Shown: positions 2 through 37,403, counted from the first letter of the stretch. The stretch is 37,403 nucleotides of DNA from an uncultured virus (IMG/VR IMGVR_UViG_2687453420_000004) (IMGVR_UViG_2687453420_000004); one strand, 5' to 3'. Program-made: numbers and translations. The notes: generated by a model not told the origin, from the sequence alone.

Positions 2-139
2 GAAACTGGATTATTGGTTTTAAAGGTTCCAAAGGAAGATATAAACTTAGATAAATTAAAAATGAAGGTTTGTCAGCAATATGCTCTAAAAGAATTTGCA
101 GAAAATATCGTAATACTAGATACTGGCCATTCAAGGTGA
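2..139 (+). pseudogene. 5' part of interrupted host gene (probable FAD-dependent oxidoreductase, GidA-like family), truncated at attL
   Basis: Open frame from base 2 reads ETGLLVLKVPKEDINLDKLKMKVCQQYALKEFAENIVILDTGH, then SR-stop (TGA 137-139) in phage DNA. It continues seamlessly with the frame at 37300. The family call is from recalled clostridial protein motifs. Confidence 0.8.
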
Positions 140-155
140 ACATAAATGCAACATT
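103..155. other. attL (host half-site, CAT core 128-130, phage arm TCAAGGTGAACATAAATGCAACATT)
   Basis: The phage arm 131-155 is an imperfect inverted repeat of 37274-37298, and the host reading frame breaks here. Confidence 0.9.
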
Positions 156-405
156 TAAAAAGATTTTTAAAACAATTGAAACTAATGAATCTGTAGCCTA
201 TTCTAGACTACCTGAAGACACCATAGCTGAAAAAATTTATAAATTAAGAATGATTAAAGGATGCACTCAACGTGAATTTGCTAAAATGTGTTCAATTGGA
301 TATTCAAGTTTATGTAAATATGAATTAGGGTTTAATCCTAGTATTAAAAACTTAAATAAAATTAGTAATGCATTCAATATTGATATAGGCTATTTTTTAA
401 AGTAG
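130..405 (+). CDS. Xre/Cro-C1 HTH domain (91 aa), the C-terminal part of the integrase in the excised (attP) form; no convincing start of its own
   Basis: KIYKLRMIKGCTQREFAKMCSIGYSSLCKYELGFNPSIKNLNKISNAFNI is a canonical Xre HTH. It is in frame with the integrase when the ends are joined. Confidence 0.85.
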   Translation, partial: FKVNINATFKKIFKTIETNESVAYSRLPEDTIAEKIYKLRMIKGCTQREFAKMCSIGYSSLCKYELGFNPSIKNLNKISNAFNIDIGYFLK

Positions 406-432
406 GAAATTTTATTAATTTCCTACTTTTTT
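399..432. terminator. Bidirectional intrinsic terminator
   Basis: AAAGTAGGAAAT-7 nt-ATTTCCTACTTT followed by a T tract, between convergent ORFs. Confidence 0.75.
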
Positions 433-498
433 ATTTTTAGTTTTTATTATTAATATAACCCTTGTTTTTTTACCAGATTTAGCTTGTCTTTTTTTCAT
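415..498 (-). CDS. Unannotated 27-aa basic micropeptide MKKRQAKSGKKTRVILIIKTKNKKVGN
   Basis: ATG preceded by a GGGGGAA RBS. Has its own sigma-A promoter and LexA box upstream and a terminator downstream. Confidence 0.65.
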   Translation of the reverse strand: MKKRQAKSGKKTRVILIIKTKNKKVGN

Positions 499-539
499 AT
501 GTATTCCCCCGGTAATCACTAATTTTACTTTACTACTAA

Positions 540-581
540 ATTATACCTCTAATAACCCAAACACTCAAGAACATTTGTTCG
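540..581 (-). promoter_or_regulatory. Sigma-A promoter (TTGAGT-17-TATAAT) with abutting LexA/Cheo box CGAACAAATGTTCT
   Basis: -10 at 540-545, -35 at 563-568, GAAC-N4-GTTC at 569-580. Confidence 0.8.
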
Positions 582-767
582 AGTAAAATATTTTAAATAT
601 TACTTTAAAGTTCTTATAATCTAGTATTTTCCTTTAATGCTATTATACATCAAAAAATATTCATACCATGAATATCGTTCGTCTTTTTACCACAATTTTC
701 TTATTTATTATTGCTATATTTTGTCGTAAAATTAAAAAGAATAGGATATTTACACGAGGTGATACAA

Positions 768-1004
768 ATGATAAGGATTTTCCGTGAACATAAAGGAATT
801 AGGCAAGAAGATTTAGCAAGCAGATTAGGTATAACACAACCTTATTTAAGTAAATTGGAAAATAACTCTATATATAAGATTAATGTTAATGTAGATCTTA
901 TAGAAAACTTAGCAATGGAACTTAATGTTTGTCCAATAGCTGTATTTTTGTATTTTTTAAATGTCAATATTTCATGTCCTTTTTATTTAAAAAAGACACA
1001 ATAA
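768..1004 (+). CDS. Xre-family HTH regulator
   Basis: REHKGIRQEDLASRLGITQPYLSKLEN motif. The GAGGTG RBS places the start at ATG 768 rather than 711. Confidence 0.85.
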   Translation: MIRIFREHKGIRQEDLASRLGITQPYLSKLENNSIYKINVNVDLIENLAMELNVCPIAVFLYFLNVNISCPFYLKKTQ

Positions 1005-1080
1005 CATGAATTGAAACTTATAACTTTATTAACTGCTATAAACTTATTTTATATAAAGTAAGTTTATAGGAGGATCTATT

Positions 1081-1359
1081 ATGTTTGGGGATAGACTTAG
1101 AGAATTAAGAGAAGAAAAACAACTTACACAAGAGGAACTTGGTAAGTTACTGAATGTTTCTCGTCAAGCGGTATCTAGCTATGAAAAGGGAGAAAATGAA
1201 CCAACTATAGATGCATTGGTTAAAATTGCGAATATATTTAATGTGAGCTTAGATTATTTATTGGGTAGAACAAAAGAGAGATATAATTTAAATCTAAAAG
1301 ATAAAAAGAATAAGGAATTATTATTAGATTTAATAAAAGTAATAGATAAGCATAAATAA
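1081..1359 (+). CDS. Xre-family HTH regulator
   Basis: MFGDRLRELREEKQLTQEELGKLLNVSRQAVSSYEKGENEP; AGGAGG RBS. Confidence 0.92.
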   Translation: MFGDRLRELREEKQLTQEELGKLLNVSRQAVSSYEKGENEPTIDALVKIANIFNVSLDYLLGRTKERYNLNLKDKKNKELLLDLIKVIDKHK

Positions 1360-1391
1360 AAACTCTAAAGGTTAACCCTCTAGAGTTTTTT
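1358..1391. terminator. Bidirectional terminator
   Basis: AAAACTCTA...TAGAGTTTT hairpin between convergent genes. Confidence 0.7.
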
Positions 1392-1395
1392 ATAT

Positions 1396-1914
1396 TTATT
1401 TTCCCTCTTTGATCAATTTATCAAATATTTTTTGGTATTCTTCTTTACCAAAAGTACCACTATCAAATGTCAAAAAATTATCTACACTTTCTTTAGAAGT
1501 GTACATTAAAATGCCACCTAATTGCTTAGTTGTAAATGCTATTCTTTTATAACAATTATATTTTTTATCACTGCTAACAATTCCTGATATAACATTAGAA
1601 TATGTGTAAAAATCTTTTATTTTTTGTTCCACACTTCCATCCTTAGTATTCAATTCTACAAATAATCCTTTATCATCACCTTCTCCATCTTCCCTTAATT
1701 GAGTAATCTCTAAAGGAATTACGGTTGAAAGTCCTTTATTTAATTCTGTATTTTTTAAATCTATTGATTCTTTTTTTTCATCTTTTTTATCTTCCTGTTT
1801 TAAATCCTGGTTAATATTTTCTTTATTATATTCCTTAGTTGTTTGTTTAGATCCACAAGCAACTAATCCTAAGGCTAAAACTCCTGCTATTAATATAGAT
1901 ATTAGTTTTTTCAT
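1396..1914 (-). CDS. Lipoprotein (moron)
   Basis: Signal peptide with LVAC lipobox, charged linker, GAGGGGG RBS, and an upstream TGTTATAAT extended -10. Confidence 0.85.
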   Translation of the reverse strand: MKKLISILIAGVLALGLVACGSKQTTKEYNKENINQDLKQEDKKDEKKESIDLKNTELNKGLSTVIPLEITQLREDGEGDDKGLFVELNTKDGSVEQKIKDFYTYSNVISGIVSSDKKYNCYKRIAFTTKQLGGILMYTSKESVDNFLTFDSGTFGKEEYQKIFDKLIKEGK

Positions 1915-1995
1915 GTACTAATCCCCCTCTTAGTAATATAGCTTAATTATAACAAAAATGTTATATTTGTAAATAAATAAACAAATCTTGTATAT

Positions 1996-2031
1996 AAAAA
2001 AAGTAGTTCCACTTGGGAAACTACCTTTTTG
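1996..2031. terminator. Intrinsic terminator
   Basis: AGTAGTTCC...GGAAACTACC stem with A and T tracts on both sides. Confidence 0.6.
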
Positions 2032-2034
2032 TTT

Positions 2035-2280
2035 TTACTTTAATTCTGTTAATTTAATAATTTTATTTGTATTTGGTTGTCGAAAATAAATAAATTTTTC
2101 TTCTTGATGTACATCATATATAGATGTCCACAACGGTCTATTCTTGTCTAGACAATACATATATTCTCCATTCTCTGGACAATTATCGTCCGCAGGTTCA
2201 ATTGCTCTAGCAACACCGATAAATCTTGTACATGCTCCAATTAACAAGCCTACTATTAAATATCTTATTCCCTTTCGCAT
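2035..2280 (-). CDS. Small secreted or membrane-anchored hypothetical protein
   Basis: Hydrophobic N-terminus; overlaps the upstream gene in an operon. Confidence 0.7.
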   Translation of the reverse strand: MRKGIRYLIVGLLIGACTRFIGVARAIEPADDNCPENGEYMYCLDKNRPLWTSIYDVHQEEKFIYFRQPNTNKIIKLTELK

Positions 2281-2459
2281 TTTAAATTCCCTTCTCTTTC
2301 TTTTAATAAATTCCTAAGTTCTTCTATATCTTCTAGTGTTGCTTTATTCCTTATAAAGCTTCTAGCACTGCTTCTGCTTTTTAAATAGCTTGCATACTCT
2401 CTATTTTTTTTCTCCCAATTTTGATTTGCTATTGTTTGTTTGGATTTTTCTTCAGTCAT
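2265..2459 (-). CDS. Small basic conserved phage protein, possibly DNA-binding
   Basis: AGGAGG RBS; ANQNWEKKNREYASYLKSRSSARSFIRNKATLEDIEEL resembles small Firmicute phage proteins. Confidence 0.8.
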   Translation of the reverse strand: MTEEKSKQTIANQNWEKKNREYASYLKSRSSARSFIRNKATLEDIEELRNLLKEREGNLKCERE

Positions 2460-2461
2460 AA

Positions 2462-2617
2462 CTATTTCCTCCTAGACAATATTATGTTTAATATTAATGC
2501 TATAATTAACAATGTAAATTTCATACAATCTAATAGAGATGGATTTATAAAATCTCCATTGAATATATTTAAAATAACTATAGCAATTAAAATTATAGTG
2601 ATATACTTTTGTTTCAT
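2462..2617 (-). CDS. Unannotated 51-aa two-TM membrane peptide (MKQKYITIILIAIVILNIFNGDFINPSLLDCMKFTLLIIALILNIILSRRK)
   Basis: Hand translation gives two hydrophobic helices. Its 3' end supplies the RBS of the next gene, but it has no clear RBS of its own. Confidence 0.6.
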   Translation of the reverse strand: MKQKYITIILIAIVILNIFNGDFINPSLLDCMKFTLLIIALILNIILSRRK

Positions 2618-2641
2618 ATTTTTAAGTGGTTGTGTTATAAT
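2613..2641 (+). promoter_or_regulatory. Antisense sigma-A promoter (TTCATA-17-TATAAT, extended -10)
   Basis: Points into the small hydrophobic peptide gene on the opposite strand, with no credible + strand CDS downstream. Confidence 0.6.
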
Positions 2642-2678
2642 ATATTTAAAAGGTTGGGGGATTTCTCCCCCTTTTAGC

Positions 2679-2777
2679 TTAGGACTTCTTGTTATTGTTT
2701 TTTAGTTCATTGACCAATGTGCAGATTGTTAGAACTAATACAACAATTTCAAGTAAGTCCTTTATTGTTTCAACCAC
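2679..2777 (-). CDS. Unannotated 32-aa type I toxin-like peptide MVETIKDLLEIVVLVLTICTLVNELKNNNKKS
   Basis: GGAGGTG RBS, GTG start, one hydrophobic helix and a Lys/Asn tail, followed by a GC hairpin (2648-2675). Confidence 0.7.
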   Translation of the reverse strand: MVETIKDLLEIVVLVLTICTLVNELKNNNKKS

Positions 2778-2801
2778 TTATCTCACCTCCCTACAATTAT
2801 A

Positions 2802-2830
2802 ATTATACTACGTGTAGTATAAGAAGTCAA
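2802..2830 (-). promoter_or_regulatory. Sigma-A promoter (TTGACT-17-TATAAT) overlapped by the 20-bp palindrome TTATACTAC-GT-GTAGTATAA
   Basis: Read directly from the sequence; palindrome at 2803-2822. Confidence 0.8.
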
Positions 2831-2875
2831 CACCTTTTTATGAATTTTTTATATAATTTATAACAATTTTTCCAA

Positions 2876-2912
2876 TAAAAAAAGAGGTACTCCCATAAAA
2901 GAGAGTACCTTT
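2876..2912 (-). terminator. Terminator after endolysin
   Basis: AGGTACTC...GAGTACCT stem with a T tract on the - strand. Confidence 0.7.
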
Positions 2913-2916
2913 AAAA

Positions 2917-3681
2917 TTAATCTGTTAATCTTTTTCTACCGCCATTACCTTTATTGTCATTCCAGTAGCAATCCATGAATCCTTTACCGATTGCTATATA
3001 ATTCCCCCTATCTTTGTGTATTATTAATCTTCCATCTGTAGCCTGTTCTATGTATCCAGTAGTTCCTGGAATTTTAAATATAGTTTCTCCTGTTGGTATA
3101 GTCTTATCATCATATTTTGGTTTTTCCACTTTTACCACTTCCTTTGGTTTATTTGGTGTCGCTACTGTAGTACCTACTAGTCCTTTAACTATAGCATTAG
3201 CCATATTTTCAGCATTATATCTATTTATATCTCCTGCATTATCGCAGAAACAACATTCTATTAGCATGGCTTTAGCTTTTGTATGTTTTAATACATAAAG
3301 ACCAGAACCATCTTTTAACCCTCTATTTGTATAGCCTAAAGCACAAATATTATTTAATACCGCTCTAGCTTGCGGTAATTCTTTCCCTCCATATGTGAAT
3401 ACTTCTGTACCATAAGCACTACCGTTATAACAATTAAAATGAATAGATACATATAAATCTACATTGTTATTATTGGCTGTATTAGTTCTATAACTTAAAC
3501 TATCATTTAGGCTAGAACAACTATCCTTATAACACTTAATAACTGTATGCCCTAATGCTTGTAATTTACTTATTACTTTTGTTCCTACTTCTCTAGTTAA
3601 ATTAGATTCTGCTTTTATTCCTACTGCTCCATAATCTGCTCCTGACATTGTATGCCCACAATCTATTCCGTATGTAGCCAT
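2917..3681 (-). CDS. Endolysin, N-acetylmuramoyl-L-alanine amidase (Amidase_3) with C-terminal binding domain
   Basis: IDCGH, E, SIHFN and LIECCFCDN zinc-amidase motifs; follows the holins. Confidence 0.95.
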   Translation of the reverse strand: MATYGIDCGHTMSGADYGAVGIKAESNLTREVGTKVISKLQALGHTVIKCYKDSCSSLNDSLSYRTNTANNNNVDLYVSIHFNCYNGSAYGTEVFTYGGKELPQARAVLNNICALGYTNRGLKDGSGLYVLKHTKAKAMLIECCFCDNAGDINRYNAENMANAIVKGLVGTTVATPNKPKEVVKVEKPKYDDKTIPTGETIFKIPGTTGYIEQATDGRLIIHKDRGNYIAIGKGFMDCYWNDNKGNGGRKRLTD

Positions 3682-3723
3682 TTAACACTCCTCCTAAAAT
3701 TTAATATAAAAAAAGAACAGGCA

Positions 3724-3933
3724 TTAATCCTGCTCTTTACTTTCTTTTACCGCTTGTCTAGCTGAACTTTGTCCAAAGTAAAACCCTATTATTAATGTAA
3801 ATACAGAAAGAAATTCCGTACTGGATAGATTCCCTTTTGCGCTTAAAATGCAAAATACTATAGTAGTTAATAATGCTATTATCTTTTTTATCTGTAGAAA
3901 TTGTTTTAGAAATTCCATATTATTTTCTTTCAT
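3724..3933 (-). CDS. Holin
   Basis: Two TM helices, GFYFGQS motif, charged tail; immediately upstream of the endolysin. Confidence 0.8.
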   Translation of the reverse strand: MKENNMEFLKQFLQIKKIIALLTTIVFCILSAKGNLSSTEFLSVFTLIIGFYFGQSSARQAVKESKEQD

Positions 3934-3936
3934 ATA

Positions 3937-4215
3937 CTAGTCCTCCTTTTCTAATCCATCAATTCTATGGTGAGCACTCTTAGTACTCTCTTCTACTTTA
4001 ATTAGCCTAGTATTAACGTCTTCTATCTTCCTATCTGCTGCTTTTAGATCTAATCTTATATCATCTACACCTTTTGAAATATAATCTAATTTTAAAGCAG
4101 TTATTCCTTCATTTTTCCCTTCTTCTTTATTATCCTTTTCTTTAAGTCTTTTATATCCTAAATAGCTTAATGCAGCACCTAAAATAGTGTACAGTATTGA
4201 CATTTCAATATTCAT
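3937..4215 (-). CDS. Lysis-module membrane/coiled-coil protein (holin-associated)
   Basis: N-terminal TM followed by KLDYISKGVDDI...VEESTKSAHHRID. Confidence 0.7.
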   Translation of the reverse strand: MNIEMSILYTILGAALSYLGYKRLKEKDNKEEGKNEGITALKLDYISKGVDDIRLDLKAADRKIEDVNTRLIKVEESTKSAHHRIDGLEKED

Positions 4216-4285
4216 ATGTCACCTCTCTTAATTAAAAATAGGCAAAATAAAAACACCTATTCGGTGCATACTTTGCCTTTATAAT

Positions 4286-4432
4286 TTATTCTACTTCAAA
4301 ATATATCTTTGTTATTTTATAATACTCATCTGGGGTTATTTCTCCAAACGGAAACTTTTCCGTCTTAACTGCTCCTTTTAATTGTTCAGCATCTATCCAA
4401 TTTTGTTCAAAAGCTAAAATCCAAAATTCCAT
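4286..4432 (-). CDS. XkdX-family small protein (48 aa, unannotated)
   Basis: MEFWILAFEQNWIDAEQLKGAVKTEKFPFGEITPDEYYKITKIYFEVE; GGAGG RBS; TAATG coupling to the upstream gene. Confidence 0.8.
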   Translation of the reverse strand: MEFWILAFEQNWIDAEQLKGAVKTEKFPFGEITPDEYYKITKIYFEVE

Positions 4433-4632
4433 TATAAATTACCTCCTCTGCTTTGTAACATTTCTAATTTTATTTGAGTTAATTCTTTACCTAAATTATT
4501 TATTATAGCATCTTTTTGCATATTCTTAATTTTTTCTTGTGTTAGTTGTTGTCCTAAACTTTGCAATGTAAGATTATTTTTTTCTTTTTCCTCTCTTTTT
4601 TTTATTATTGTGTTATTAATATAAATTCCCAT
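4432..4632 (-). CDS. Small coiled-coil tail-associated protein
   Basis: LGQQLTQEK/LGKELTQIK repeat; lies between the fibre gene and XkdX. Confidence 0.7.
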   Translation of the reverse strand: MGIYINNTIIKKREEKEKNNLTLQSLGQQLTQEKIKNMQKDAIINNLGKELTQIKLEMLQSRGGNL

Positions 4633-4652
4633 ATTTGTACCTCCTAATATTC

Positions 4653-7295
4653 TTAGTAGTTATAGTAATATAATGTTGTCAATTTAGTATTTCTTCCTTT
4701 GATATTTATGTCTCTTTGTGATTCTGCTTTTGTAAATTGTGCATCATATTCATAATAGTCTTCTGTTATATCTAATGGTTTTACTGTTGCTATTTCTTCT
4801 CCTGCTTTTACTTCTAAGTCGTAGTCTAGAAATTTGATTGTCTCCCCCGCATGGGCTGAGATTGGTTTATCTAGGGTTAATTTATTATCCCTCGGTTCTT
4901 CCATAGTATAATCTGACCTTAGCATTACTCTATCTGTTTTACTAGATGCGTCATACTCTAGCAACAATAATCCTGGGTATTGACCATAGGCATATGGGTT
5001 ATAGTCTACCACTTCAAAGATATGTTCTGAATCTCGACTAGCTACTTGGGTAACTTGACTAATGTCGCCCCACTCCTTCTCGATTGCTACTGTTGATGTT
5101 TGATTTATTATTCCGTCTGAGAATGAGTACAATAACATGAAACCGTGTAATTTATCATAAGTTAGTCTAAGGAACGGTATTCTACTGTACTCTGGGGTTA
5201 GTGTAGCCCAATAACTCTGGTATGAACCTTTCTCTTTTGTCTGAGTATACGTTGCAACTTTCATTTTATTTGCACCTTCTTGATAACTGTAAGCAATTAT
5301 CCAAGTATGCTTTCCGTTCTCCCCCTGAAATAACCTACTATATACACATGAGTTAACTGCATTTATACCATCTTTAAAAACTCGACCCACATTACTTATT
5401 TGTCCTGAAGCTGTATATATAGCCTCTACTAATTGTAATTGCGTTTCATCATATTTCTTTACAAAACTTATAGATATGTTACCCTCACGAAAATCTTGTA
5501 TATCAGTCACATATGGAAAGCTGACATTGTTGTTATTTTCATCGTTAAACATCACACTTCTAGCATCGATAGTTATCTTGTCTGGATTTGACATGTTAAA
5601 CCAATAACCTACGATATTGTAAGTACTGGTACTTAAGTTCAGTTCCTTAGTTGCTACGACTAGGTGATTTGTTTTACTATCCACGGTAGCGCTTACTGAC
5701 ATGACTGAGTTATCCATAGCTACACTTTGAAACTTAGATTTATTTGTATCAGTGTTGATAGTTAAGAAAGTTAATTCTCTAGGTTCAGCAATTACCATAT
5801 ATACCTTATTGTCTTTACCTGTTATAGCTACACTCTTTAAGGGGTTACTGTTCATTGACCCATGAGCTTTAGGCGCTGTTCCATCTAAGGCAATACTTCT
5901 AATATTAATACCGTACTTAGGTGATGTTGTTCTAGTGTGTATGTCTGGAAAATATATTCTTCCATTATGGACATAAGATTTTTGACCTCTTCCCATAGCA
6001 AACAATTGGGTTGGCTTTTCTACATCTTCTTGAGTAATTAATTCCGCTACTACATTAACTTCTTTTGCTCCACCTATTATACTTGATATTGTATATATTT
6101 CTTTATCCTTTATTAGTCTATCCCCCACGACTGGTGCTTTTGTTGATGTTGTATATTCTAATTCCTTACTATTTAGTGTATTCCATTCCGTAGTTGTTAA
6201 GCTATTCATAACTTGAGGGACTAGTCTTAGCCTTGAGTTCTCTGTCTCTGGAAATGTTTGTGGTTTCATTACTAAGGATTCTCCGCTTGTATATGATTTA
6301 ATAGGGTCAAACTGCTTTATCGTAATTGGTTCTGATAGCTTATATTTTTCTAATTCTCCCCCGATTACATAGAGTCCAAGCCATTCCTTAGCAAACCCAC
6401 CTGTTCCTTTGTGTCTTACTGTTATCTTATAATTGTTACCCGCCTTGAATGTTACTGGAAGTTTCATTGATCCTGTTGTATTGTCTACCATTTCAGATTG
6501 GTATTCAAATTTTTGTTGGGTGTAATTATATACTGACACATCCATTTGTTCTAATTGACCTTCGCCGTTATACTTGGTTTGTAAAGTAATTTCACCTTTT
6601 ACTGGCTCTGGATGTGTTCTATCTTCTGATGTTGGGTATACTGGTATTGGTTTTTCTGGTGGGTCTATTTCGATATACTCTAAAACTGGTCGCCAACCTG
6701 CATCCTTAAATGAAGCACTAGCACTATAATAGGTAACCTTGTTAACATTTGAATAACCTCTTTCCATTACGCTTCCACTAATAGTTTCCTGACATGTTGT
6801 CCAGATTCCCCACCAATTCCATAATTGGTTGTGTTGTCCATCTAATTGACCATAGGTGTTAGTATCTGTTAAATCTTCCTGTGTCGGCATTGGTAGACCT
6901 GATATATTATAGACATTACGGATAATACCAATCCACTCGTTCTCCGCTAGTACTCTAAGTTTATAGTCCTTTCCATCTATTGTAACTGGTGTTCCGTATA
7001 TCCTACCTAACTTGTTTAGGTAATCCCATGAGACATTAGTAAATATCACTCTATCGGATATATATAGGTGTTTGTTACCATCCTTTAAATGAATCCATGT
7101 TAAGTTATAGGTTTCATCCGTGTCTGAATTTCCAATATGACAAGTATCTCCCGATGCGTAGGCTCGTATATCGCCCTTACCACGTCCAGATAGGTCACCT
7201 GGGTAGCTATCTGTAATCCAGGGTCTAGTCGGTATTGCACGTATAACTCCGTTAGTTTTAAACGTTCCGAACTTTTCTTTCCCTATATACTCCAC
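4653..7295 (-). CDS. Putative receptor-binding/tail fibre protein (N-terminal C-type-lectin-like domain, beta-rich C-terminus)
   Basis: Position after the BppU-like gene; LWNWWG...RG...GWRPVLE motif; visibly more GC-rich codons. Confidence 0.7.
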   Translation of the reverse strand: MEYIGKEKFGTFKTNGVIRAIPTRPWITDSYPGDLSGRGKGDIRAYASGDTCHIGNSDTDETYNLTWIHLKDGNKHLYISDRVIFTNVSWDYLNKLGRIYGTPVTIDGKDYKLRVLAENEWIGIIRNVYNISGLPMPTQEDLTDTNTYGQLDGQHNQLWNWWGIWTTCQETISGSVMERGYSNVNKVTYYSASASFKDAGWRPVLEYIEIDPPEKPIPVYPTSEDRTHPEPVKGEITLQTKYNGEGQLEQMDVSVYNYTQQKFEYQSEMVDNTTGSMKLPVTFKAGNNYKITVRHKGTGGFAKEWLGLYVIGGELEKYKLSEPITIKQFDPIKSYTSGESLVMKPQTFPETENSRLRLVPQVMNSLTTTEWNTLNSKELEYTTSTKAPVVGDRLIKDKEIYTISSIIGGAKEVNVVAELITQEDVEKPTQLFAMGRGQKSYVHNGRIYFPDIHTRTTSPKYGINIRSIALDGTAPKAHGSMNSNPLKSVAITGKDNKVYMVIAEPRELTFLTINTDTNKSKFQSVAMDNSVMSVSATVDSKTNHLVVATKELNLSTSTYNIVGYWFNMSNPDKITIDARSVMFNDENNNNVSFPYVTDIQDFREGNISISFVKKYDETQLQLVEAIYTASGQISNVGRVFKDGINAVNSCVYSRLFQGENGKHTWIIAYSYQEGANKMKVATYTQTKEKGSYQSYWATLTPEYSRIPFLRLTYDKLHGFMLLYSFSDGIINQTSTVAIEKEWGDISQVTQVASRDSEHIFEVVDYNPYAYGQYPGLLLLEYDASSKTDRVMLRSDYTMEEPRDNKLTLDKPISAHAGETIKFLDYDLEVKAGEEIATVKPLDITEDYYEYDAQFTKAESQRDINIKGRNTKLTTLYYYNY

Positions 7296-29429: not shown

Positions 29430-29445
29430 TTAATCACTTCCAATA

Positions 29446-29610: not shown

Positions 29611-29663
29611 AGAATCACTCCCTCAAAATTATTTCATTCCTGGATATACTTTTGTATTCTGAT

Positions 29664-29975
29664 TTATTCTTCAATATATTCATTTCCTATTAATCCATCT
29701 TCCCAATTAGGATTAAGTGCTTTACAAGTCTCATATAATGCTTGTAAATAATCACTTCTATCATTGAAATAAATAGCATTATTAGCTATAGCAAAAGCTT
29801 TCTCCATTCTTTCTTCCGCGTTATTCACTGATCTACATATGAATTCAGCTTCAGCACTTCCTACATTTTTACAATAAGTAGCCCCATTTGCTCCAATAAC
29901 ATCATAACTTCTGATACCGTCAAATTCTGCTTTTTTACTTTCTTCATATTTCAAATGAATCATATGAAATTTCAT
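29664..29975 (-). CDS. Hypothetical protein
   Basis: AGGGTGG RBS before MKFHMI; IANNAIYFNDRSDYLQALYE. Confidence 0.75.
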   Translation of the reverse strand: MKFHMIHLKYEESKKAEFDGIRSYDVIGANGATYCKNVGSAEAEFICRSVNNAEERMEKAFAIANNAIYFNDRSDYLQALYETCKALNPNWEDGLIGNEYIEE

Positions 29976-30039
29976 TTTTACCACCCTTTCACAAATTCGC
30001 CTTAATTTCATTTCTGGATCTTATCTTTGAATTGTGACA

Positions 30040-30462
30040 CTAAAACACTACAACCATACTTGGAAATGGCGCTGAGTTTTTAGCATCTCCGAATTTTAAC
30101 CTACCTTTTACAAATCTTATTTCCTTAACTTTATGATAAATATATTCATGAAAATACTTTGTATCTGTTCTAGCTGGTATTAACATTACTACTGTTGTAT
30201 TAGGTTTTAGACTTTCTTCATAACACTTTTTAACCCAATCCTTTAAAACCCTACCATATGGAGGATTACAAAATACTTTATATCCTTGCCAATCCTGTTT
30301 TAGTCCATCTATTTCTTTGGTAAAATATTTAGAACACTTAGCATTTTCATGGGTAGCACATGGATCTAGATCAAAGTTAAACTCTTTATTTAATTTATCA
30401 AAGAAGTCTTGCGGTGTTGCCCATAAATCCGTTTCACTACTAAACATTACCGCTGTATTCAA
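30040..30462 (-). CDS. Phage DNA N6-adenine methyltransferase (Dam-like)
   Basis: WATPQ, FDLDPCA, CNPPY, LIPARTDT and GRLKF motifs. Confidence 0.92.
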   Translation of the reverse strand: MNTAVMFSSETDLWATPQDFFDKLNKEFNFDLDPCATHENAKCSKYFTKEIDGLKQDWQGYKVFCNPPYGRVLKDWVKKCYEESLKPNTTVVMLIPARTDTKYFHEYIYHKVKEIRFVKGRLKFGDAKNSAPFPSMVVVF

Positions 30463-30497
30463 TTTATCACCTTCTTTTCTGTCGCCTTAATTTCAAA

Positions 30498-30776
30498 TTA
30501 CGAATTAATATAAAAATTAATTTTACTTTTAAATTCCCATCTTCTTTTTAGCAACTTTCTATTGTGTTTATTTATTTCTTTTTCTAAGTCCATATTTTCT
30601 GTTTTTACTTTTGTATACAACATACCGATAAGGACTTGCATATTGTCCAATATCTCTTCAGTAGTGTTTTGTTTATCTCCATTTATAATTGCTTCCTTAA
30701 CTTCCTTAAATTCTTCCTGTAGCTTTAAGAGTTCTTCTGGTAATGTTTCTTCTTTATCTAAAATCATTAAATGCAC
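30498..30776 (-). CDS. MazG-like NTP pyrophosphohydrolase-fold protein
   Basis: KLQEEFKEV...EEILD motif. Confidence 0.65.
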   Translation of the reverse strand: MHLMILDKEETLPEELLKLQEEFKEVKEAIINGDKQNTTEEILDNMQVLIGMLYTKVKTENMDLEKEINKHNRKLLKRRWEFKSKINFYINS

Positions 30777-31090
30777 TATTCTTCTTCCTCCAATATTGAT
30801 TTAAAATCGTCATAATCTTCTTCAAAACAATTTTTATAATCTTTTATGCAATTTCCTTGATACTCAAATATGTCATTTAACTGTATGCAGATATACCCAT
30901 TCACTAAAAACACCTCTATTTGATTTTCTGGTTCAAAATACTCTGTACCAACAGCCTTTTGAAATTCTGTTAATTCATCAAAATCAACAAATGTTATAGC
31001 TTCTACATTTTCTGGTTCATTATCATTGTGGTATAAATGTGTTTCATGCTCTTTTAGGAATTCATATAATTCTAAATTTATTTCAATCAT
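30776..31090 (-). CDS. Acidic hypothetical protein
   Basis: Coupled ORF with RBS. Confidence 0.7.
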   Translation of the reverse strand: MIEINLELYEFLKEHETHLYHNDNEPENVEAITFVDFDELTEFQKAVGTEYFEPENQIEVFLVNGYICIQLNDIFEYQGNCIKDYKNCFEEDYDDFKSILEEEE

Positions 31091-31599
31091 TATTTATCTC
31101 CCTCATTTCCTTTTATAGTATATTTAAAATCATTCATCCTAATTGGAAGTGTTACATAAGTTATGTCTTCAGATTTAAATATTACTGGTGTTACTGGACT
31201 TTCAGCATAAATTTCATAATGCCTAATATTTATATTTTTTAATAACTCTTTATTTATAAATATCAACTCATTGTTTACTTTAAATATTTGCATTTTACAA
31301 TAACTATCTTCATACACAAAAGGTAACATTGTAGCTTCTATTTTATTAGACATATCAAAGTATTCTAATACGTTTAAATTGCCCCATTCTCTTAACTCAC
31401 CATTTTTAACACAAAATCCATTCTTTAAATCTTGGAAAGTTTGCTTTTTTATTACCTTCTTATAACTACTAAGCTTATTAGATATCTTAAACCCTGTGTA
31501 TTCATCTATTACTACGAAAAACTTTTTACATGGAATAAATACAAAGGTGTTCGTTAAAGCATTTTTAACCCATCTTTCAAATAGTTTTATATCTGTCAT
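31090..31599 (-). CDS. Hypothetical protein with a beta-clamp-like C-terminus
   Basis: SPVTPVIFKSEDITYVTLPIR. Confidence 0.6.
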   Translation of the reverse strand: MTDIKLFERWVKNALTNTFVFIPCKKFFVVIDEYTGFKISNKLSSYKKVIKKQTFQDLKNGFCVKNGELREWGNLNVLEYFDMSNKIEATMLPFVYEDSYCKMQIFKVNNELIFINKELLKNINIRHYEIYAESPVTPVIFKSEDITYVTLPIRMNDFKYTIKGNEGDK

Positions 31600-31601
31600 G
31601 A

Positions 31602-32144
31602 TTACCTATCCCCCTCAATCATTTTATTGCCTATATTTCCTAACATTTTTTTTATTGATGTAGGTATTTGTTTTTCTTCTTTTTTTCTTATTACTGTTGC
31701 TTTGTAGCTTCTCATAAAATTAGAACCTATTACTTTTTCAATTCCGTCTACAGTTTCCTGGCTCCAATTATGAAGTATATTGTGACTGCCTATTGCCTGT
31801 TGAATCTTTTCAGGCAACTTATTAAATTCTTCTTCAGCATTATAAGCAGAATTTTTAATAGCCTTTCTAACTAGTCCCCATGCTTCAATCTCTGTCATTT
31901 CACTTTGTCCGCCACTAGTTATATAATTTATAGCTTCTATTACTTCCGCCACACTTGGTGGAAACTTATTAGTTGCTATAATCTTTTTAATAGCTATTTG
32001 TACTACGTTATATGGATAGTCCTCTAACATAGTGCTCCATAAATTGACCATAGTTTTAGCATCCGTAGGCTTTAAATCTCTAGCCCATTGTGGGTATGCT
32101 GCCTTTATAATACTTAATATTTTTATAGTTTCTTCTAGTATCAT
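31602..32144 (-). CDS. Replicative helicase loader/inhibitor (G39P-like)
   Basis: IIKAAYP, LWSTMLEDY and KFPPSVAE motifs; follows the replisome organizer. Confidence 0.85.
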   Translation of the reverse strand: MILEETIKILSIIKAAYPQWARDLKPTDAKTMVNLWSTMLEDYPYNVVQIAIKKIIATNKFPPSVAEVIEAINYITSGGQSEMTEIEAWGLVRKAIKNSAYNAEEEFNKLPEKIQQAIGSHNILHNWSQETVDGIEKVIGSNFMRSYKATVIRKKEEKQIPTSIKKMLGNIGNKMIEGDR

Positions 32145-32978
32145 CTACATACCCCCATTCAACATATTTAAAAATGGGTTGCTTGAATCAGTATTACTTG
32201 AATTTTGTTTTATGGATTCTTGCTTCAATGGGAATACACCTTTCCAACTGTTCATTATTGATTGTTCTAATATTTTTATTTTTATATCATCATCATTAGA
32301 TAATTTATCTAGGTTTTTAAGCATTAAGTCTAATGCATTATTTGTCATTTTAGATTTTATTAGAGTTCTCATTTTTATAAATTCTAATATAGTATTTTTT
32401 AATTCTTCATTTTCTGTATATTCATCAATTATTGTATTGTAAGTTTTCTTAGTACCTTCTTTCTTACTTCCTTTCTTTTTTTTCTTTTTCTCTAACTCTG
32501 TATCTTTCTCTATATCTAACTCTATATCTATCTCTTTCTCTAACTCTATCTCTGGTGGACGTTCGTCAGACATTTGTCCTTTTGGTAATAAATTTTGTTT
32601 TTCCGTTTCTATTTTCTTTCTATATGCTCTTTTTCTATCTCCCTCTGAACTACTCTTACCTATAAAGTTTTGTATATCTAGCATGTAAATAGCTCCATTG
32701 TCCAATATTTCTATTAATCCTAACTCTATAAATACTTTTATAGCCTTTTCTACAATTGCAATGTTGTGCCCTGTTACTGTAGCAACCATCTTAGGGTTGT
32801 ATGGAATATGTTCCTTAAACATTAATCTTCCTTCATTTTTAAGTGATTTTAAATATAGTTTCATTAATATATCTGAGTATAAATACCCATTATCCATGCT
32901 TTGTAAAATCTTTATATCTTCTGTATCATAAAAATTTTCTTTAATTCTTAGATAATAATATTTTTTATTATCACTCAA
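32145..32978 (-). CDS. Phage replisome organizer/initiator
   Basis: KKYYYLRIKENFY...KLYLKSL N-terminal domain; SIMNSWKGVF. Confidence 0.9.
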   Translation of the reverse strand: MSDNKKYYYLRIKENFYDTEDIKILQSMDNGYLYSDILMKLYLKSLKNEGRLMFKEHIPYNPKMVATVTGHNIAIVEKAIKVFIELGLIEILDNGAIYMLDIQNFIGKSSSEGDRKRAYRKKIETEKQNLLPKGQMSDERPPEIELEKEIDIELDIEKDTELEKKKKKKGSKKEGTKKTYNTIIDEYTENEELKNTILEFIKMRTLIKSKMTNNALDLMLKNLDKLSNDDDIKIKILEQSIMNSWKGVFPLKQESIKQNSSNTDSSNPFLNMLNGGM

Positions 32979-33182
32979 GGTTTGACCCTCCTAACTTTGT
33001 AGAAATTCTATTATGTCTTTTAAACTTTACAAATACTTCAATTTCTTATAAACTGTACTTAACGTTTTTTATTTAAGTTTTTTGGTGGCTTAAGCCATCT
33101 CTTTTTTTATCTGAAAATATCCTAAAGTTTGGTTACTATAACCAATGTCTTTAAATTTAACTATCATTTTTACACCTTCTTT

Positions 33183-33365
33183 CTATGCACATCTTTTAAA
33201 AATACTTGCACTTCTTATTGCAATGTCTAAAACATAATCTAAGCTTGTACACTTTCTAAAGCTAACTCTATTGAACTTAATATCATCTGTTGTAATTTCA
33301 GCAACTATTGCAAATTCTTCTTTTGTTAAATTGATTCCCCTTTCTTTTAATAACTTTCTTAACAT
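33183..33365 (-). CDS. Hypothetical protein
   Basis: AAGGAG RBS. Confidence 0.7.
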   Translation of the reverse strand: MLRKLLKERGINLTKEEFAIVAEITTDDIKFNRVSFRKCTSLDYVLDIAIRSASIFKRCA

Positions 33366-33366
33366 T

Positions 33367-33627
33367 CTAAATCTCCTTTACTATCTCAACATTTTTAAAT
33401 ATCCAATTTAGTGCAAATATTTTTAAATCGTTATGATCTACAATGACCTCATCCTCTAGCAAATCAACTTCTTCGAAAAATTCATAATTCTCTCCATCGA
33501 GTATTTTAATAGTTAAGTTAAATATTTCTTGATCGTATGAGAATCTAAAAATATCTATATCCACATAAAGCATTGTTCCTGTAGAAACATTTAAATTTAA
33601 ATCTGTTGTTTTTATTTTTTTACTCAT
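33367..33627 (-). CDS. Hypothetical protein
   Basis: AGGAGG RBS. Confidence 0.75.
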   Translation of the reverse strand: MSKKIKTTDLNLNVSTGTMLYVDIDIFRFSYDQEIFNLTIKILDGENYEFFEEVDLLEDEVIVDHNDLKIFALNWIFKNVEIVKEI

Positions 33628-33638
33628 TTTTAATCCTC

Positions 33639-34442
33639 CTAAAAACTTACTTGGTTATTTAATATTTCAATTTCATTTGCTAATGCTCTTGGTAATTTAT
33701 ATTCACTTATAAATTTCTTGGCATCTTCTAAATATTTTCTTTTTATTGCTGCACAACTTGTTACATCAAATTCTCTCCAAACTTGTTTGTATATGTCTGA
33801 GAATACTTTTCTATTTAATTCCTTATATGCTGGAGTACCCTTACCACCTAAACATTTAATTGCAATTTTGCTAACTACTTTACTTAATTCCTTACTATCT
33901 ATAGTAAATAAAGGGAATTCCTCAAGTTTTTCTTTATTTTCTTCTGATGCATGCTTAGCTTCTAAAGCAGTGTAATTTACTTGATTAAGTTGTTGCTTTA
34001 CATCTTTCATTTGTTGTAAATTTTCTATTAAAATATCCTCTATACTCATAGGTGGCAAATTCTTTTCTTTAACTCTAAAGTAAGTTTCCTCTAAGTTGTC
34101 GAATTGCTCCCATGCCTTATCGGTGTCTAGAATTTTACAATGTCTATTAGCTCCTCGTTCTGTCCATAGATATAAACAATTGATTCTTAACATTGACGGA
34201 TTATCTTTAAGATAAATTGTTTTAAAATCTTTTAATTTTGAACCTTCTAACTTAAAATAATGTTTACCTTCTTTAAACTTTTCTTGATTTCTATTAAAGC
34301 CTTGCTGTATTCTTATAGGATCAACCTCATAAACTTCTCCAAGTTGCTCTGTTGTTAAAACTCTTTCTCCACTAACTTCTACTGGCTTTATTTCCGTTAT
34401 TACAGGTTGTCCATTTTCTACAGTTAGATTTATCTTTTTCAT
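33639..34442 (-). CDS. Antirepressor-type protein (ORF6N and ORF6C domains)
   Basis: RVLTTEQL...FKEGKHYFKLEG, LWTERGANRHCKILDTDKAWE and VFSDIY...F.V motifs. Confidence 0.9.
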   Translation of the reverse strand: MKKINLTVENGQPVITEIKPVEVSGERVLTTEQLGEVYEVDPIRIQQGFNRNQEKFKEGKHYFKLEGSKLKDFKTIYLKDNPSMLRINCLYLWTERGANRHCKILDTDKAWEQFDNLEETYFRVKEKNLPPMSIEDILIENLQQMKDVKQQLNQVNYTALEAKHASEENKEKLEEFPLFTIDSKELSKVVSKIAIKCLGGKGTPAYKELNRKVFSDIYKQVWREFDVTSCAAIKRKYLEDAKKFISEYKLPRALANEIEILNNQVSF

Positions 34443-34498
34443 ATTGTTACCTCCTATGTTTAGTGTTGATTACTTTACATCTATAAGTATTTAAAAGA

Positions 34499-34642
34499 TT
34501 AATTTTTCTTTTCAAGCTCCTGGATTAAATATTCAAGTTCTTCGGTTGTCAGTCTTTCTACTACTATATCAGCTAATACTTCTGAATACTTATCCTCCAA
34601 AATAGTCATATCATTTGGCAAAATTAAAGTTACTTCATCCAT
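34499..34642 (-). CDS. Unannotated 47-aa acidic protein
   Basis: AGGAG RBS; MDEVTLILPNDMTILEDKYSEVLADIVVERLTTEELEYLIQELEKKN. Confidence 0.65.
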   Translation of the reverse strand: MDEVTLILPNDMTILEDKYSEVLADIVVERLTTEELEYLIQELEKKN

Positions 34643-34696
34643 AATCAAACTCCTAAAATATTATTAATTTATACTATGTCTATTAACTGGTTATAG

Positions 34697-34762
34697 TTAC
34701 GCACTTTTTTTAGTTTTCTTCTTTTCATTCTTCTTTTTTATTTTAAGAATTACTCTTTTCAT
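34697..34762 (-). CDS. Unannotated 21-aa basic micropeptide MKRVILKIKKKNEKKKTKKSA
   Basis: AAGGAG RBS right after the cro stop; similar to the 415..498 peptide. Confidence 0.55.
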   Translation of the reverse strand: MKRVILKIKKKNEKKKTKKSA

Positions 34763-34775
34763 ATATAACTCTCCT

Positions 34776-34964
34776 TTAGATTAAACTCTCAACCTTTTCT
34801 TCTAAAGCATTCGCAATTTTTGTTATTGTATCTATTCTTGGATTTTTAGCTTTGCCGCTTACTATGTCATGTAAAGTCGAATATGCTACTTGACTTTTAA
34901 TAGATAGCTTGTACAATGTTAGCCCGCTTTCTCCTATCTTTTGTTTTAACTTTTCTACATTCAA
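34776..34964 (-). CDS. Cro-like HTH regulator
   Basis: Xre HTH, AAGGAGGGG RBS, divergent from the repressor. Confidence 0.88.
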   Translation of the reverse strand: MNVEKLKQKIGESGLTLYKLSIKSQVAYSTLHDIVSGKAKNPRIDTITKIANALEEKVESLI

Positions 34965-34978
34965 TTCTTCCCCTCCTT

Positions 34979-35187
34979 ATCGCTTTACCGATTATATTAT
35001 TATCATATATCATCTTACCGATATTTCAAAATTCACTTTGTTTCATTTAAATAAAATATCTTGTAAATGCTTCCAATTTCTTAATTTTTTTTAATTTTCC
35101 TTATCAGTTTACCGATATTTTCCTTTAATGCATGTCGGTTTTTATCCTATTTTTGTTCTTTACTAATTATCGGTTTGACGATATAAT
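34979..35187. promoter_or_regulatory. Lysis/lysogeny switch with four 14-bp operators (ATCN-N6-CGAT) and divergent promoters
   Basis: ATCGCTTTACCGAT 34979, ATCATCTTACCGAT 35009, ATCAGTTTACCGAT 35103, ATCGGTTTGACGAT 35169; TTTACT-17-TATAAT at 35159-35187. Confidence 0.8.
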
Positions 35188-35221
35188 ATATATAAAGTTT
35201 CTATTATACGAGGTGACAATT

Positions 35222-35596
35222 ATGGGAATATCCGAATTAGGATTAAATATAAAAAAAATCAGAGCACAAAAAGGATGGTCGTTAAGTAAACTAAAACAAG
35301 AAAGTGGGGTTGGATACGCTACTTTACATGACATAGAAAATGGTAAAAGTCAAAAAATGAACTCAAAAAATCTTGAAAAAGTAGCAAATGCTCTTAATGT
35401 AACTACTAATGAATTATTAGGTATTGATATAGTGGAACATACGGTTACAGATTTAGAAGGAACTCTTAAGATTATTTTACAATCAGATGAATTAGAAATA
35501 GATGGATTACCAGTTAGTGAAAATGAAAAAGCTGAATTAGAAGATTTCTTTAATTTAGCCATCAATAGCATAAAAAGAAGGAGGAAAAAAGAATAA
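35222..35596 (+). CDS. CI-like Xre repressor (124 aa, no peptidase domain)
   Basis: GAGGTG RBS before ATG 35222; N-terminal HTH; divergent from cro; 1 nt upstream of the integrase. Confidence 0.88.
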   Translation: MGISELGLNIKKIRAQKGWSLSKLKQESGVGYATLHDIENGKSQKMNSKNLEKVANALNVTTNELLGIDIVEHTVTDLEGTLKIILQSDELEIDGLPVSENEKAELEDFFNLAINSIKRRRKKE

Positions 35597-35597
35597 G

Positions 35598-37403
35598 ATG
35601 AAAACAGTAGCAATATACTCTAGAAAAAGTAAATTTACTGGTAAAGGCGAAAGTATAGAAAATCAAGTCCAAATGTGCACAGAATACATAAAACAAAGAT
35701 TAAACAAAGATACTGAAATTTTAATATATGAGGATGAAGGGTTTAGTGGTGGAACAACTAATAGACCTAAATTCAAGGAAATGATTAAAGATATAAAATC
35801 TAAAAAAATCCATATTCTTATATGCTATAGATTAGATAGAATATCTCGTAATGTAGCTGATTTCTCTAACACATTAGAAATTTTACAAGAAAATAACTGC
35901 TCTTTTATTAGTATAAGAGAGCAGTTTGACACCTCCACACCAATGGGGCGTGCAATGATTTATATAGCCTCTGTATTTGCACAGCTTGAAAGAGAAACCA
36001 TAGCAGAGCGTGTAAGAGACAATATGCTAGAACTAGCTAAAAATGGACGTTGGACTGGCGGAAAAATCCCATTAGGTTTTACTTCTGAAAGAGTTAAATA
36101 TACTGATGATACTGGACTTCAAAGAGAATATTCAAAGCTTAAAATAAATAAAGAAGAAATAAAATTCGTTGAATTTTTATATAAAAAATATTTAGAACTG
36201 GGTAGCTTGCATAAGCTAGAAGTATATATAACACAAAATGAATTAAAATCAAGAAATGGCATTATGTTTGAAAAATCAAGTCTAAAATTGATATTACAAA
36301 ACCCGATATATGTTAAAGCAAATTATGAAGTTATAAATTATTTAAAAGAAAACAATTGGACCATATATGGTGAAATAGACAATAAACATTCCCTTTTAAG
36401 CTATAATAAAACAGAGCAATCTTTTAAAAATGGTAAGCATACTAAAGTAAAAAAATCTGAAAATGAAAGATTTGTAGCTATAAGTAATATTGAAGGTTTT
36501 ATAAATCCAGATTTATGGTTAAATGTACAAAGACAATTTGATAAAAATAGAACTAGATTTCCTAGATTAGGGAAAACCCATAATGCTTTACTTGTTGGTA
36601 AATTACGTTGCGGTAAATGCAAAGAATATATGCTAGTACAACATGGGCGTGTTTCAAAAACTACAGGGAAAAAATTATTTTATTACACTTGTTCTTTAAA
36701 ACGAAAATCTCATAAAAAGTTATGTGATAATGGTAATGCAAAAGCAGATTATGTAGAAAATTTAGTGATTAATAGTTTGAAATTATTATCTAAATCAAAA
36801 AAGAAATTTATAAACGGATTAAAAATTTTATATAAAAACAAATTGAAGTCTAATGAAACATCAATTGAAAGATTGTCTTTAGAAAAATCTCTAAATGAAA
36901 AGAAAAATCAAATAGATAACTTGGTTTTAGCATTATCTAAAAGTAGCGAAATAGAAGATATACTCCTAGATAAAATTAAATCATTAAAAAATGATTGTGT
37001 TGAAATTGAAAATAAAATTAAAAACATAGAAACCTCTACAAAAGAACAAAAATTAAATAATATAAATTTAAGTCTAATTGAATCTATAATAGATGAATGC
37101 TCAATGATAGATCAATTATCTAGAAACGAACAAAAAAGAATAATAGATATTCTAATAGATACAATTTATTGGTATGGGTCTGGTAACGGAAAGGGTAAAA
37201 TTAAAATTAAATTTATAGGTGCTGATGAAAACACTAAAGAAATTGTATTATCTGAAGAAAAACTGCAACAAAGAATGTTGCAGTTTTATTCACCTAGCAC
37301 ATGCAAAATTAATGACTTCTTATTATCCTTTAGAAAAACTAAGAAAACTAAAGGGATTGGAAAAGGTAAAATATATAGATCCTTATGCAGGTGGAAAAGG
37401 TAA
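35598..37403 (+). CDS. Large serine recombinase (integrase); last 33 aa encoded by host DNA beyond attR
   Basis: YSRKS catalytic motif, DEGFSG, RLDRISR, FAQLERE, recombinase domain, CGKC..C..C zinc ribbon and coiled coil. Confidence 0.96.
   Translation: MKTVAIYSRKSKFTGKGESIENQVQMCTEYIKQRLNKDTEILIYEDEGFSGGTTNRPKFKEMIKDIKSKKIHILICYRLDRISRNVADFSNTLEILQENNCSFISIREQFDTSTPMGRAMIYIASVFAQLERETIAERVRDNMLELAKNGRWTGGKIPLGFTSERVKYTDDTGLQREYSKLKINKEEIKFVEFLYKKYLELGSLHKLEVYITQNELKSRNGIMFEKSSLKLILQNPIYVKANYEVINYLKENNWTIYGEIDNKHSLLSYNKTEQSFKNGKHTKVKKSENERFVAISNIEGFINPDLWLNVQRQFDKNRTRFPRLGKTHNALLVGKLRCGKCKEYMLVQHGRVSKTTGKKLFYYTCSLKRKSHKKLCDNGNAKADYVENLVINSLKLLSKSKKKFINGLKILYKNKLKSNETSIERLSLEKSLNEKKNQIDNLVLALSKSSEIEDILLDKIKSLKNDCVEIENKIKNIETSTKEQKLNNINLSLIESIIDECSMIDQLSRNEQKRIIDILIDTIYWYGSGNGKGKIKIKFIGADENTKEIVLSEEKLQQRMLQFYSPSTCKINDFLLSFRKTKKTKGIGKGKIYRSLCRWKR
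37274..37325. other. attR (phage arm AATGTTGCAGTTTTATTCACCTAGCA, CAT core 37300-37302, host half-site)
   Basis: The arm is the inverted counterpart of 131-155, and the host frame resumes at CAT. Confidence 0.9.
37300..37403 (+). pseudogene. 3' part of the interrupted host gene
   Basis: Reads HAKLMTSYYPLEKLRKLKGLEKVKYIDPYAGGKG, open to the window end, in a different frame from the integrase. Confidence 0.8.

Follow-up and report, generated by a model that had tools for sequence, protein, structure and literature searches.

Large serine recombinases (LSRs) are viewed as enzymes complete in themselves, with a separate directionality factor alone deciding their direction, and in the model LSRs described so far the phage attachment site (attP), to our knowledge, adjoins the recombinase gene. 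Recombinase genes that span their own attP, and are altered by the reaction that their product catalyzes, are known from Mx8 (IntP/IntX) and SSV1; both enzymes are tyrosine recombinases, and the outcome is a changed C-terminal segment of the catalytic protein in Mx8 and a gene split in two in SSV1. We analyzed a 37,403-nucleotide stretch of DNA from an uncultured virus (IMG/VR IMGVR_UViG_2687453420_000004; the whole stretch is called the window below) that carries the LSR gene of an integrated phage. We conclude, with good confidence, that attP lies inside the integrase open reading frame (ORF): the circular phage very probably encodes a 659-aa LSR ending in a helix-turn-helix (HTH) domain, and the prophage an HTH-less LSR with a host-coded tail.

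An attachment site inside another kind of phage gene underlies the integration-dependent immunity of BPs-type mycobacteriophages; according to the portions of the reports available to us, attP lies there in the repressor gene, and the viral and prophage proteins differ in their C termini (PMC8092301, PMC4557955). A large LSR discovery study rebuilds attP and the bacterial site (attB) from prophage ends, and the part of that article at hand says nothing of attachment sites that fall within the recombinase gene itself (PMC10083194). Phage phi6013 of C. pasteurianum was set aside as not relevant, its att system being a different one with a 28-bp core in the accessible part of its description (PMC5027557). 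In the literature searched, most subscription journals lying outside its coverage, we found no LSR gene that spans attP, no LSR that loses an HTH or other domain on integration, and no slippage in an LSR gene. This agrees with an earlier note on the window, which knew of no described LSR that gains or loses a DNA-binding domain in this way.

The window contains a 37.2-kb temperate phage of Clostridium botulinum (the organism name comes from the sources of an identical protein), integrated as a prophage that extends over 130/131..37302. The window opens (2-130, frame 2) and closes (37303-37403) within one and the same host gene (Table 1). The integrase ORF, 35598..37403, encodes 601 aa in the prophage, and the identical protein is labelled 'recombinase family protein [Clostridium botulinum]' by its sources. 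Pfam matches to Resolvase (PF00239, E = 7.4e-40, residues 4-152), Recombinase (PF07508) and Zn_ribbon_recom (PF13408) show that the N-terminal resolvase-type catalytic domain, the Recombinase domain and the zinc ribbon are present, and thus that the prophage form keeps every LSR domain. Beyond ...SPST, the last 33 codons are an alternative frame of the 3' part of the host gene; translation of the ORF bears out the earlier note on this point. Joining 35598..37302 by script to position 131 and onward gives a single open frame of 659 aa (568 + 91) that ends at TAG 403-405, again as the earlier note had proposed.

The 91-aa tail added by this join matches HTH_3 (E = 8.1e-10) and HTH_19 (E = 6.1e-10), and a terminator-like hairpin follows at its stop. 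An Xre-type HTH and then a terminator had been claimed for this position, and both the profile matches at E ~1e-9 and the hairpin (399-429) uphold the claim. A hairpin scan found no terminator-like hairpin in 34500..37403, the stretch holding the integrase gene. In the prophage the HTH part is stranded at attL, 37 kb from the integrase core, and the 5' host-gene frame halts shortly beyond the junction at TGA 137-139. The cI-like gene at 35132-35596 is left whole by integration.

The prophage boundaries were fixed by comparison with unoccupied sites. The left flank was searched against 41 related genomes and the site was fetched from five. Four of the five have an empty site, in which the host gene is whole and reads ...GG(N)CAT followed by GCAAAATT(A/G)ATGAC; in the fifth, G005, this position is occupied by a related prophage whose integrase is 89% identical. 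The empty site is also seen in Logan contigs from the public runs X5, a bioreactor metagenome, and X6, with 0 differences over the aligned 37300-37403, and the 30 unaligned letters before 37300 appear by eye to match window positions 98-127. Contigs of runs X1 and X2 show the lysogen form, with 8 differences. Because of the empty sites in the relatives and in X5 and X6, we take T131 to be phage-born and the exchange to fall within CA(T), 128-130 and 37300-37302; this is the shared CAT at which the earlier note had placed the crossover. The nearest virus record (G002) is a 15-kb fragment with neither int nor HTH and was uninformative.

Uninterrupted, the host gene (L027:1717-2991) encodes 425 aa and matches Pfam GIDA with E = 1.4e-40, while scoring below the curated cut-off of every NCBIfam model, equivalogs included; the insertion point lies at about codon 261 of this GIDA-family flavin adenine dinucleotide (FAD) gene. 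A radical-SAM identity was rejected, since it rested on a sub-threshold ELP3_N match and the full gene gives the GIDA match. The host gene is split in G005, G193 and G247. The gene is a hot spot for insertion: in G193 (C1 1619038-1728592) and G247 (C1 593864-673944) a further LSR element of another kind (integrase ~45-49% identical) lies at about codon 100 or 332 and leaves the gene in three pieces. In G001 (C21 23806-26001), a comparable LSR lies directly upstream of an unoccupied site.

Natural proteins with the fused architecture are found among homologues of the integrase. Twenty of the best 120 homologues are fused LSR-HTH proteins of 643-663 aa, with precomputed PF01381/PF12844 matches in 17 of the 20; the other 100 are 544-619 aa long. 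Members of C. acetobutylicum type and C. saccharoperbutylacetonicum type are among the homologues. The 20 long homologues align end to end, with Y7-S8-R9-K10-S11, in the conserved Ser/Arg motif of the catalytic domain, and residues of the tail invariant in 20/20. The tails of eight HTH-less homologues that were fetched diverge past ..LQFxS(P/H)S(T/M), except in P0005 and P0070, which lack the motif. The earlier note had pointed to free-phage LSRs with a C-terminal HTH as a place to look, and one was found in vB_CpeS-CP51, an isolated temperate phage of C. perfringens: its annotated integrase is 655 aa long, the tail matches the HTH profile (E = 2.4e-17), and the gene has an 18/22 palindrome at the expected place. 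Intact attP palindromes are likewise present in the fused ORFs of L038, L001 and L047. Among 80 IMG/VR loci, the fused form occurs in L038, L047 and L053 (the same as CP51), at 53-64% identity to the query, and in a fourth, more distant locus, L067 (41%). At least 15 further IMG/VR loci (55-73% identity) are HTH-less, at 567-619 aa, and most of their contigs end at the integrase stop.

The AlphaFold model of P0014, the closest natural fused homologue (20-sequence alignment), has a confident LSR core and a confident HTH (589-660, with helices 601-658 confident), and helices 383-519 are inserted between the zinc-ribbon strands. The stretch coded by attP, residues 551-588, has a predicted local distance difference test (pLDDT) score below 50. 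By this model, attP sits in the coding sequence of a linker, predicted to be disordered, between the LSR core and the HTH.

Split prophages with the same arrangement were sought with the 568-aa core and the 91-aa tail, which were searched over 384 and 386 scored genomes of the family. In the resulting pairs, integrase and orphan HTH share a contig and a strand and are separated by 24-70 kb, the HTH being the 'upstream' member. For 12 of the 16 pairs fetched, a palindromic attP (13-21/22 symmetric) could be rebuilt with int and HTH in frame, so that the frame across attP is conserved in other prophages, a point on which the earlier note had sought evidence. All 12 belong to the closer clade (integrase 58-89% identity). 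The automated palindrome join failed for G095, G339, G401 and G330; G095 and G339 were rebuilt from shared 6-nt cores, and the best palindrome for G095 was 8/22 in the register tried. Of the 24 best HTH matches, one (G326) has a stop, and a weaker match in G055 has two.

One prophage, G057, reads attP in codon phase 2 instead of 1, and compensating indels restore the frame on both sides. In-frame and out-of-frame registers tied in the automatic search, and only the in-frame register keeps the host gene colinear with the empty sites. The phase shift in G057 is the strongest sign that selection keeps continuity rather than the peptide. The 12 other prophages, the 20 natural fused ORFs, CP51 and the frame compensation in G057 together place the in-frame continuity beyond chance, and the arrangement is conserved across the whole Clostridium-phage clade that targets the same host site.

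G055 (C1 2692116-2746544) has four tail-like HTH matches, one with two stops, 52-108 kb upstream of a single integrase, and two more weak HTH matches elsewhere; these may be relics of earlier insertions or reflect several prophages. At the attL of G401:C33 (L119), the host arm gives way directly to the final bases of an integrase gene, followed by a full copy of attP and an HTH; this left junction resembles a scar left by a tandem prophage or a rearranged one.

The host-coded tails of the prophage forms range from 3 to 46 aa across 10 prophage pairs and have nothing in common. For this reason, integration amounts to loss of the HTH, with no meaningful swap for a tail without conserved content. 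The earlier note had described an exchange of the host tail for the HTH; the gain and loss of the HTH stands, and the idea of a meaningful swap does not. Our confidence in the structural reading as a whole, a 659-aa LSR-HTH in the circular phage and an HTH-less LSR in the prophage, draws on the exact empty-site boundaries, the in-frame join, the natural fused homologues, phage CP51 and the 12 split prophages.

Several observations weigh against this reading or against attaching a special role to it. Neither the excised circle nor either protein has been observed directly for this phage, and the public-run contigs show the lysogen and the empty site with no attP junction. The related genomes are kin, and the 12 pairs are not 12 independent events. 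In the complete chromosome of G237, a fused int-HTH gene (667-aa frame; C1 3763523-3765493, L028 8494-10497) with an intact attP is present while the GIDA gene with attB (2304269-2305534) is also intact. The fused form may not be strictly confined to free phage DNA, or the element may be inactive or misassembled. As for the HTH itself, it is not docked on the core in the P0014 model (predicted template modelling score 0.38), which gives no hint of an allosteric role. Its fold is the generic Xre fold, the closest solved sequence being 7t8i, an ICEBs1 Xre-family regulator (E = 7e-5), and its PHROG matches are regulator families (8/4/3), which fits a plain transcription factor equally well. No HTH binding site was identified. 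The neighbours of the fused gene in G237 are cI-like, ImmA-like, SNase and histidine-kinase genes and an amidase.

The rebuilt attP, about 48 bp long, is an imperfect palindrome of two arms of 22-24 nt around CA, with 17/22 symmetric positions, and is identical to attB only in CA(T). We compared 16 attP regions, 13 rebuilt by script and three natural and intact. DNA identity is 0.72-0.93 from -27 to +38 and 0.5-0.64 further out, and in the alignment, read by eye, third codon positions inside attP look conserved too. The comparison suggests that the conserved peptide ..MLQFxSPST-CKVNKTAT.. follows from a constraint acting at the level of the DNA.

The outer motif of attP occurs three times around the site (144-153, 37261-37270 and 37276-37285), and exact matches are found nowhere else in the window. 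The third copy (37259-37270) was rejected as a conserved element; the peptide that corresponds to it, LQQxMLQF, is not shared by the whole family. The inverted repeat at 37259-37287 is a candidate target of the HTH.

Insertion polarity was compared over loci L007-L026 and L111-L118. Phages with a CA centre (the window, G005, G193, G206 and G224) are co-directional with the host gene, and those with a TG centre (G247, G293, G347, G388, G345 and G282) lie opposite to it at the same site. This split fits the expectation if the asymmetric dinucleotide alone sets polarity, and a natural centre swap that flips insertion polarity at one host site is a useful side result. The centre of G057 (GA), and probably that of G055 (TT), matches altered host codons.

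Table 1. Positions of the attachment-site, integrase and host-gene features in the window.
Feature	Position	Strand	Comment
Host gene 5' part (GIDA-family FAD protein, ~codons 218-261 of 425)	2..130	+	Up to attL
Central crossover dinucleotide CA at attL	128..129	+	Common to both junctions; empty sites align up to CA; palindrome centre
Integrase 3' part as in the circular phage: 91-codon linker and Xre-type HTH	130..405	+	Stop TAG 403-405; orphan in the prophage, no conserved start codon
P' arm of attP, 24 nt	130..153	+	Codes the first 8 residues past the junction; outer motif 144-153
Terminator-like hairpin with T run	399..429	+	Overlaps the HTH stop; sole one found for the int transcription unit
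cI-like Xre repressor gene	35132..35596	+	2-nt gap upstream of int; probably one operon with int
Integrase core, 568 codons: Resolvase, Recombinase and zinc ribbon with long helical insert	35598..37302	+	Common to both forms
Perfect 12-nt inverted repeat, 5-nt spacer	37259..37287	+	Extra copy of the outer attP motif; the outer motif of the P arm forms its right half
P arm of attP, 24 nt	37276..37299	+	Codes ...MLQFYSPS; outer motif 37276-37285
Central dinucleotide CA at attR	37300..37301	+	Twin of 128-129
Host gene 3' part resumes	37303..37403	+	Read in the integrase frame gives the 33-aa tail; stop TAA 37401-37403

Five Xre-type HTH frames are present in the phage (711-1004, 1081-1359, 34776-34964 on the minus strand, 35132-35596 and 130-405), three of which lie on the plus strand beside attP on the circular map.

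Sister clades, whose LSRs are 40-54% identical to that of the window, are organized differently at the end of the integrase gene: the integrase ORF stops 0-5 codons past a homopolymer. An exact T-A9 run at this place was noted in 24 IMG/VR loci (L055-L110), L123, and G095, G339, G401 and G330. Of the 28 loci with seven or more consecutive A's close to the stop, 24 have exactly A9, and T precedes the run in 28/28 sequences compared (24 loci and four genomes). In 22/28, a TAA located where the run begins closes the -1 frame. From the run onward this frame is open for 128-177 residues in L065, L068, L106 and the virion-derived Terrisporobacter phage TPELB_ph1, and it reaches a homologous HTH match in L065, L068, L106, L123, G095, G339 and G401 (G095 and G339 tested as rebuilt attP forms, G401 as the intact attP copy). 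Prophage-end loci whose sequence continues past the gene have a -1 frame that closes after 21-46 residues, as expected if attP lies 20-35 codons past the run. An ATG overlaps the int stop only in G095 and L062, and a GGAGG-like stretch lies upstream of it in G095. The annotation of TPELB_ph1 gives the homologous HTH an ORF of its own, 103 aa long, which starts 2 nt after a 16/22 palindrome.

The T-A9 run, which the window's own directly fused clade does not have, suggests a candidate -1 slippage site that would give a long Int-HTH from circular DNA only. Two genetic solutions appear to preserve the covalent linkage of Int and HTH: the window's clade has the in-frame fusion, and the sister clades have the -1 opening at T-A9. 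That many LSR genes end with such a candidate site is a useful side result.

By the structural reading, infecting or excised circular phage DNA encodes the 659-aa Int-HTH, with the terminator after it. Integration cuts the gene; what stays at attR is the LSR core, complete with its 568 aa and extended by a host-coded tail that carries no meaning. In the mechanism that we propose, the core enzyme of the prophage, presumably together with a directionality factor, would suffice for excision. If the core alone can excise, the HTH would be available to the enzyme only before integration. The earlier note had suggested that the changed C terminus could set recombination directionality, stability, targeting or autoregulation. 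Our preferred view of its function, a tentative one, makes the HTH an accessory DNA-binding module of the integration phase, acting through an auxiliary site at or near att or through cis control of the int operon. We weight function in this way because the Int-HTH linkage is kept in two ways and because the presumed recognition helix (..YSSxCKYE..), judged by eye from the sequences, looks well conserved in the clade that shares attP and attB. A broader proposal would be that a long Int-HTH is made across attP throughout the lineage, by fusion or by -1 slippage, with the C terminus reading the integration state, the tethered HTH steering or licensing integration, and the HTH-less form carrying out excision; taken as a whole we regard this as rather unlikely. 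That the HTH is itself the directionality factor was considered and thought unlikely, since a directionality factor fused to the enzyme should prevent the infecting phage from integrating (reasoning from the available part of PMC5737554).

The HTH could instead be a state-specific transcription regulator, made from circular phage DNA and out of reach of the prophage, for which fusion to Int is merely a convenient means of expression. It would signal the state 'not integrated' to the circuit that decides between lysis and lysogeny, for instance through repression or activation of early promoters up to the time of integration or following excision. We rate this as nearly as probable as the accessory role, though less likely than not. 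The HTH is a standard Xre domain with the regulator-family and ICEBs1 matches given above, and the linker of ~40 disordered residues leaves it with no predicted contact to the core. A free HTH is plausible in relatives, given the separate ORF of TPELB_ph1 and the G095 ATG with its GGAGG-like stretch, and the arrangement parallels integration-dependent immunity with attP in a repressor gene, as far as the available text of PMC8092301 describes it. A regulator, however, would be served by a separate ORF across attP, yet the fusion is uninterrupted in 20 ORFs, in CP51 and in 12 rebuilt prophages. The sister clades hold the HTH frame open up to the A9 run at the end of int, which argues that linkage to Int matters, and the presumed recognition helix, unlike the fast-evolving specificities of immunity systems, looks conserved.

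It is improbable, in our judgement, that the arrangement is a neutral by-product, in which attP came by drift to lie in a disordered linker that tolerated it, within an ancestral LSR-HTH protein, the two forms are functionally equal, and loss of the HTH leaves regulation unaffected. The attP-coded peptide does appear unconstrained, being read in two frames in different lineages and predicted to be disordered; the host-coded tails are arbitrary; and no LSR domain is missing from the prophage form. However, the HTH is intact and in frame down to ~58-60% integrase identity, the homologous HTH stays linked across attP in the sister clades by another device, and a dispensable domain without a start should decay, whereas stops were seen only in G326 among the 24 best matches and in the weaker G055 match.

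We give very little credence to an independent HTH gene at 131-405 that abuts attP by coincidence of frame, for although an ORF with a TTG start (70..405) exists in the prophage and GTG 136-138 overlaps TGA 137-139 and could couple its translation to that of the host gene, TTG 70 belongs to the host DNA, where it reads an alternative frame of the host gene, no start is conserved at the GTG position, and all cases examined, as well as the natural single ORFs, show a frame that runs on from int. At that position, 10 readable sequences have GTG (four), ATG (two) or GTA, ATA, GAG and GTC (one each), and GTG 136 was rejected as a conserved coupled start. In this lysogen, the GTGA overlap could permit coupled translation of a free HTH.

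Compared with known systems, the T-A9 arrangement of the sister clades recalls the slippage on poly-A runs by which IS elements (OrfA/OrfAB) and dnaX yield two protein lengths. Transcriptional frameshifting on a poly-A run is also reported for tssM of Citrobacter rodentium, in the part of the source available (PMC4256274). The sister clades resemble such genes in having an exact A9 at the end of the 0 frame, a stop within 0-5 codons and a -1 frame that leads into a further domain. They differ in that the downstream domain lies across attP, such that the long form would come only from non-integrated DNA, and in that the slippage is predicted.

The integrase of the window resembles the LSRs of phiC31, Bxb1, A118 and SPbeta (SprA) in its Resolvase and Recombinase domains and its zinc ribbon with a long helical insert. 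The phage also resembles other phages with LSR integrases in its short quasi-palindromic attP, its 2-bp centre that sets polarity, and its integration inside a host coding sequence. It differs from them in that its integrase ORF contains attP, beyond which comes a complete additional Xre HTH domain. An enzyme that gains or loses a DNA-binding domain through its own reaction would add a new layer of control, and the arrangement, kept by many relatives, is a hint that the virus may sense whether it is integrated. When LSRs are mined from this clade's integrated prophages, what is recovered is a truncated protein with a junk host-coded tail in place of the native C-terminal domain.

The BPs-type switch is alike in that attP lies inside a phage ORF and the integration state sets the form of the protein. 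There, however, the split gene is that of the repressor, the integrase is a tyrosine recombinase, and removal of a short degradation tag activates the protein; here the split gene is that of the serine recombinase itself and a folded DNA-binding domain of ~70 residues is removed. Neither the Mx8 nor the SSV1 enzyme sheds a separate HTH domain. What is new here relative to the known switches with attP in a gene is a serine recombinase that sheds a folded DNA-binding domain.

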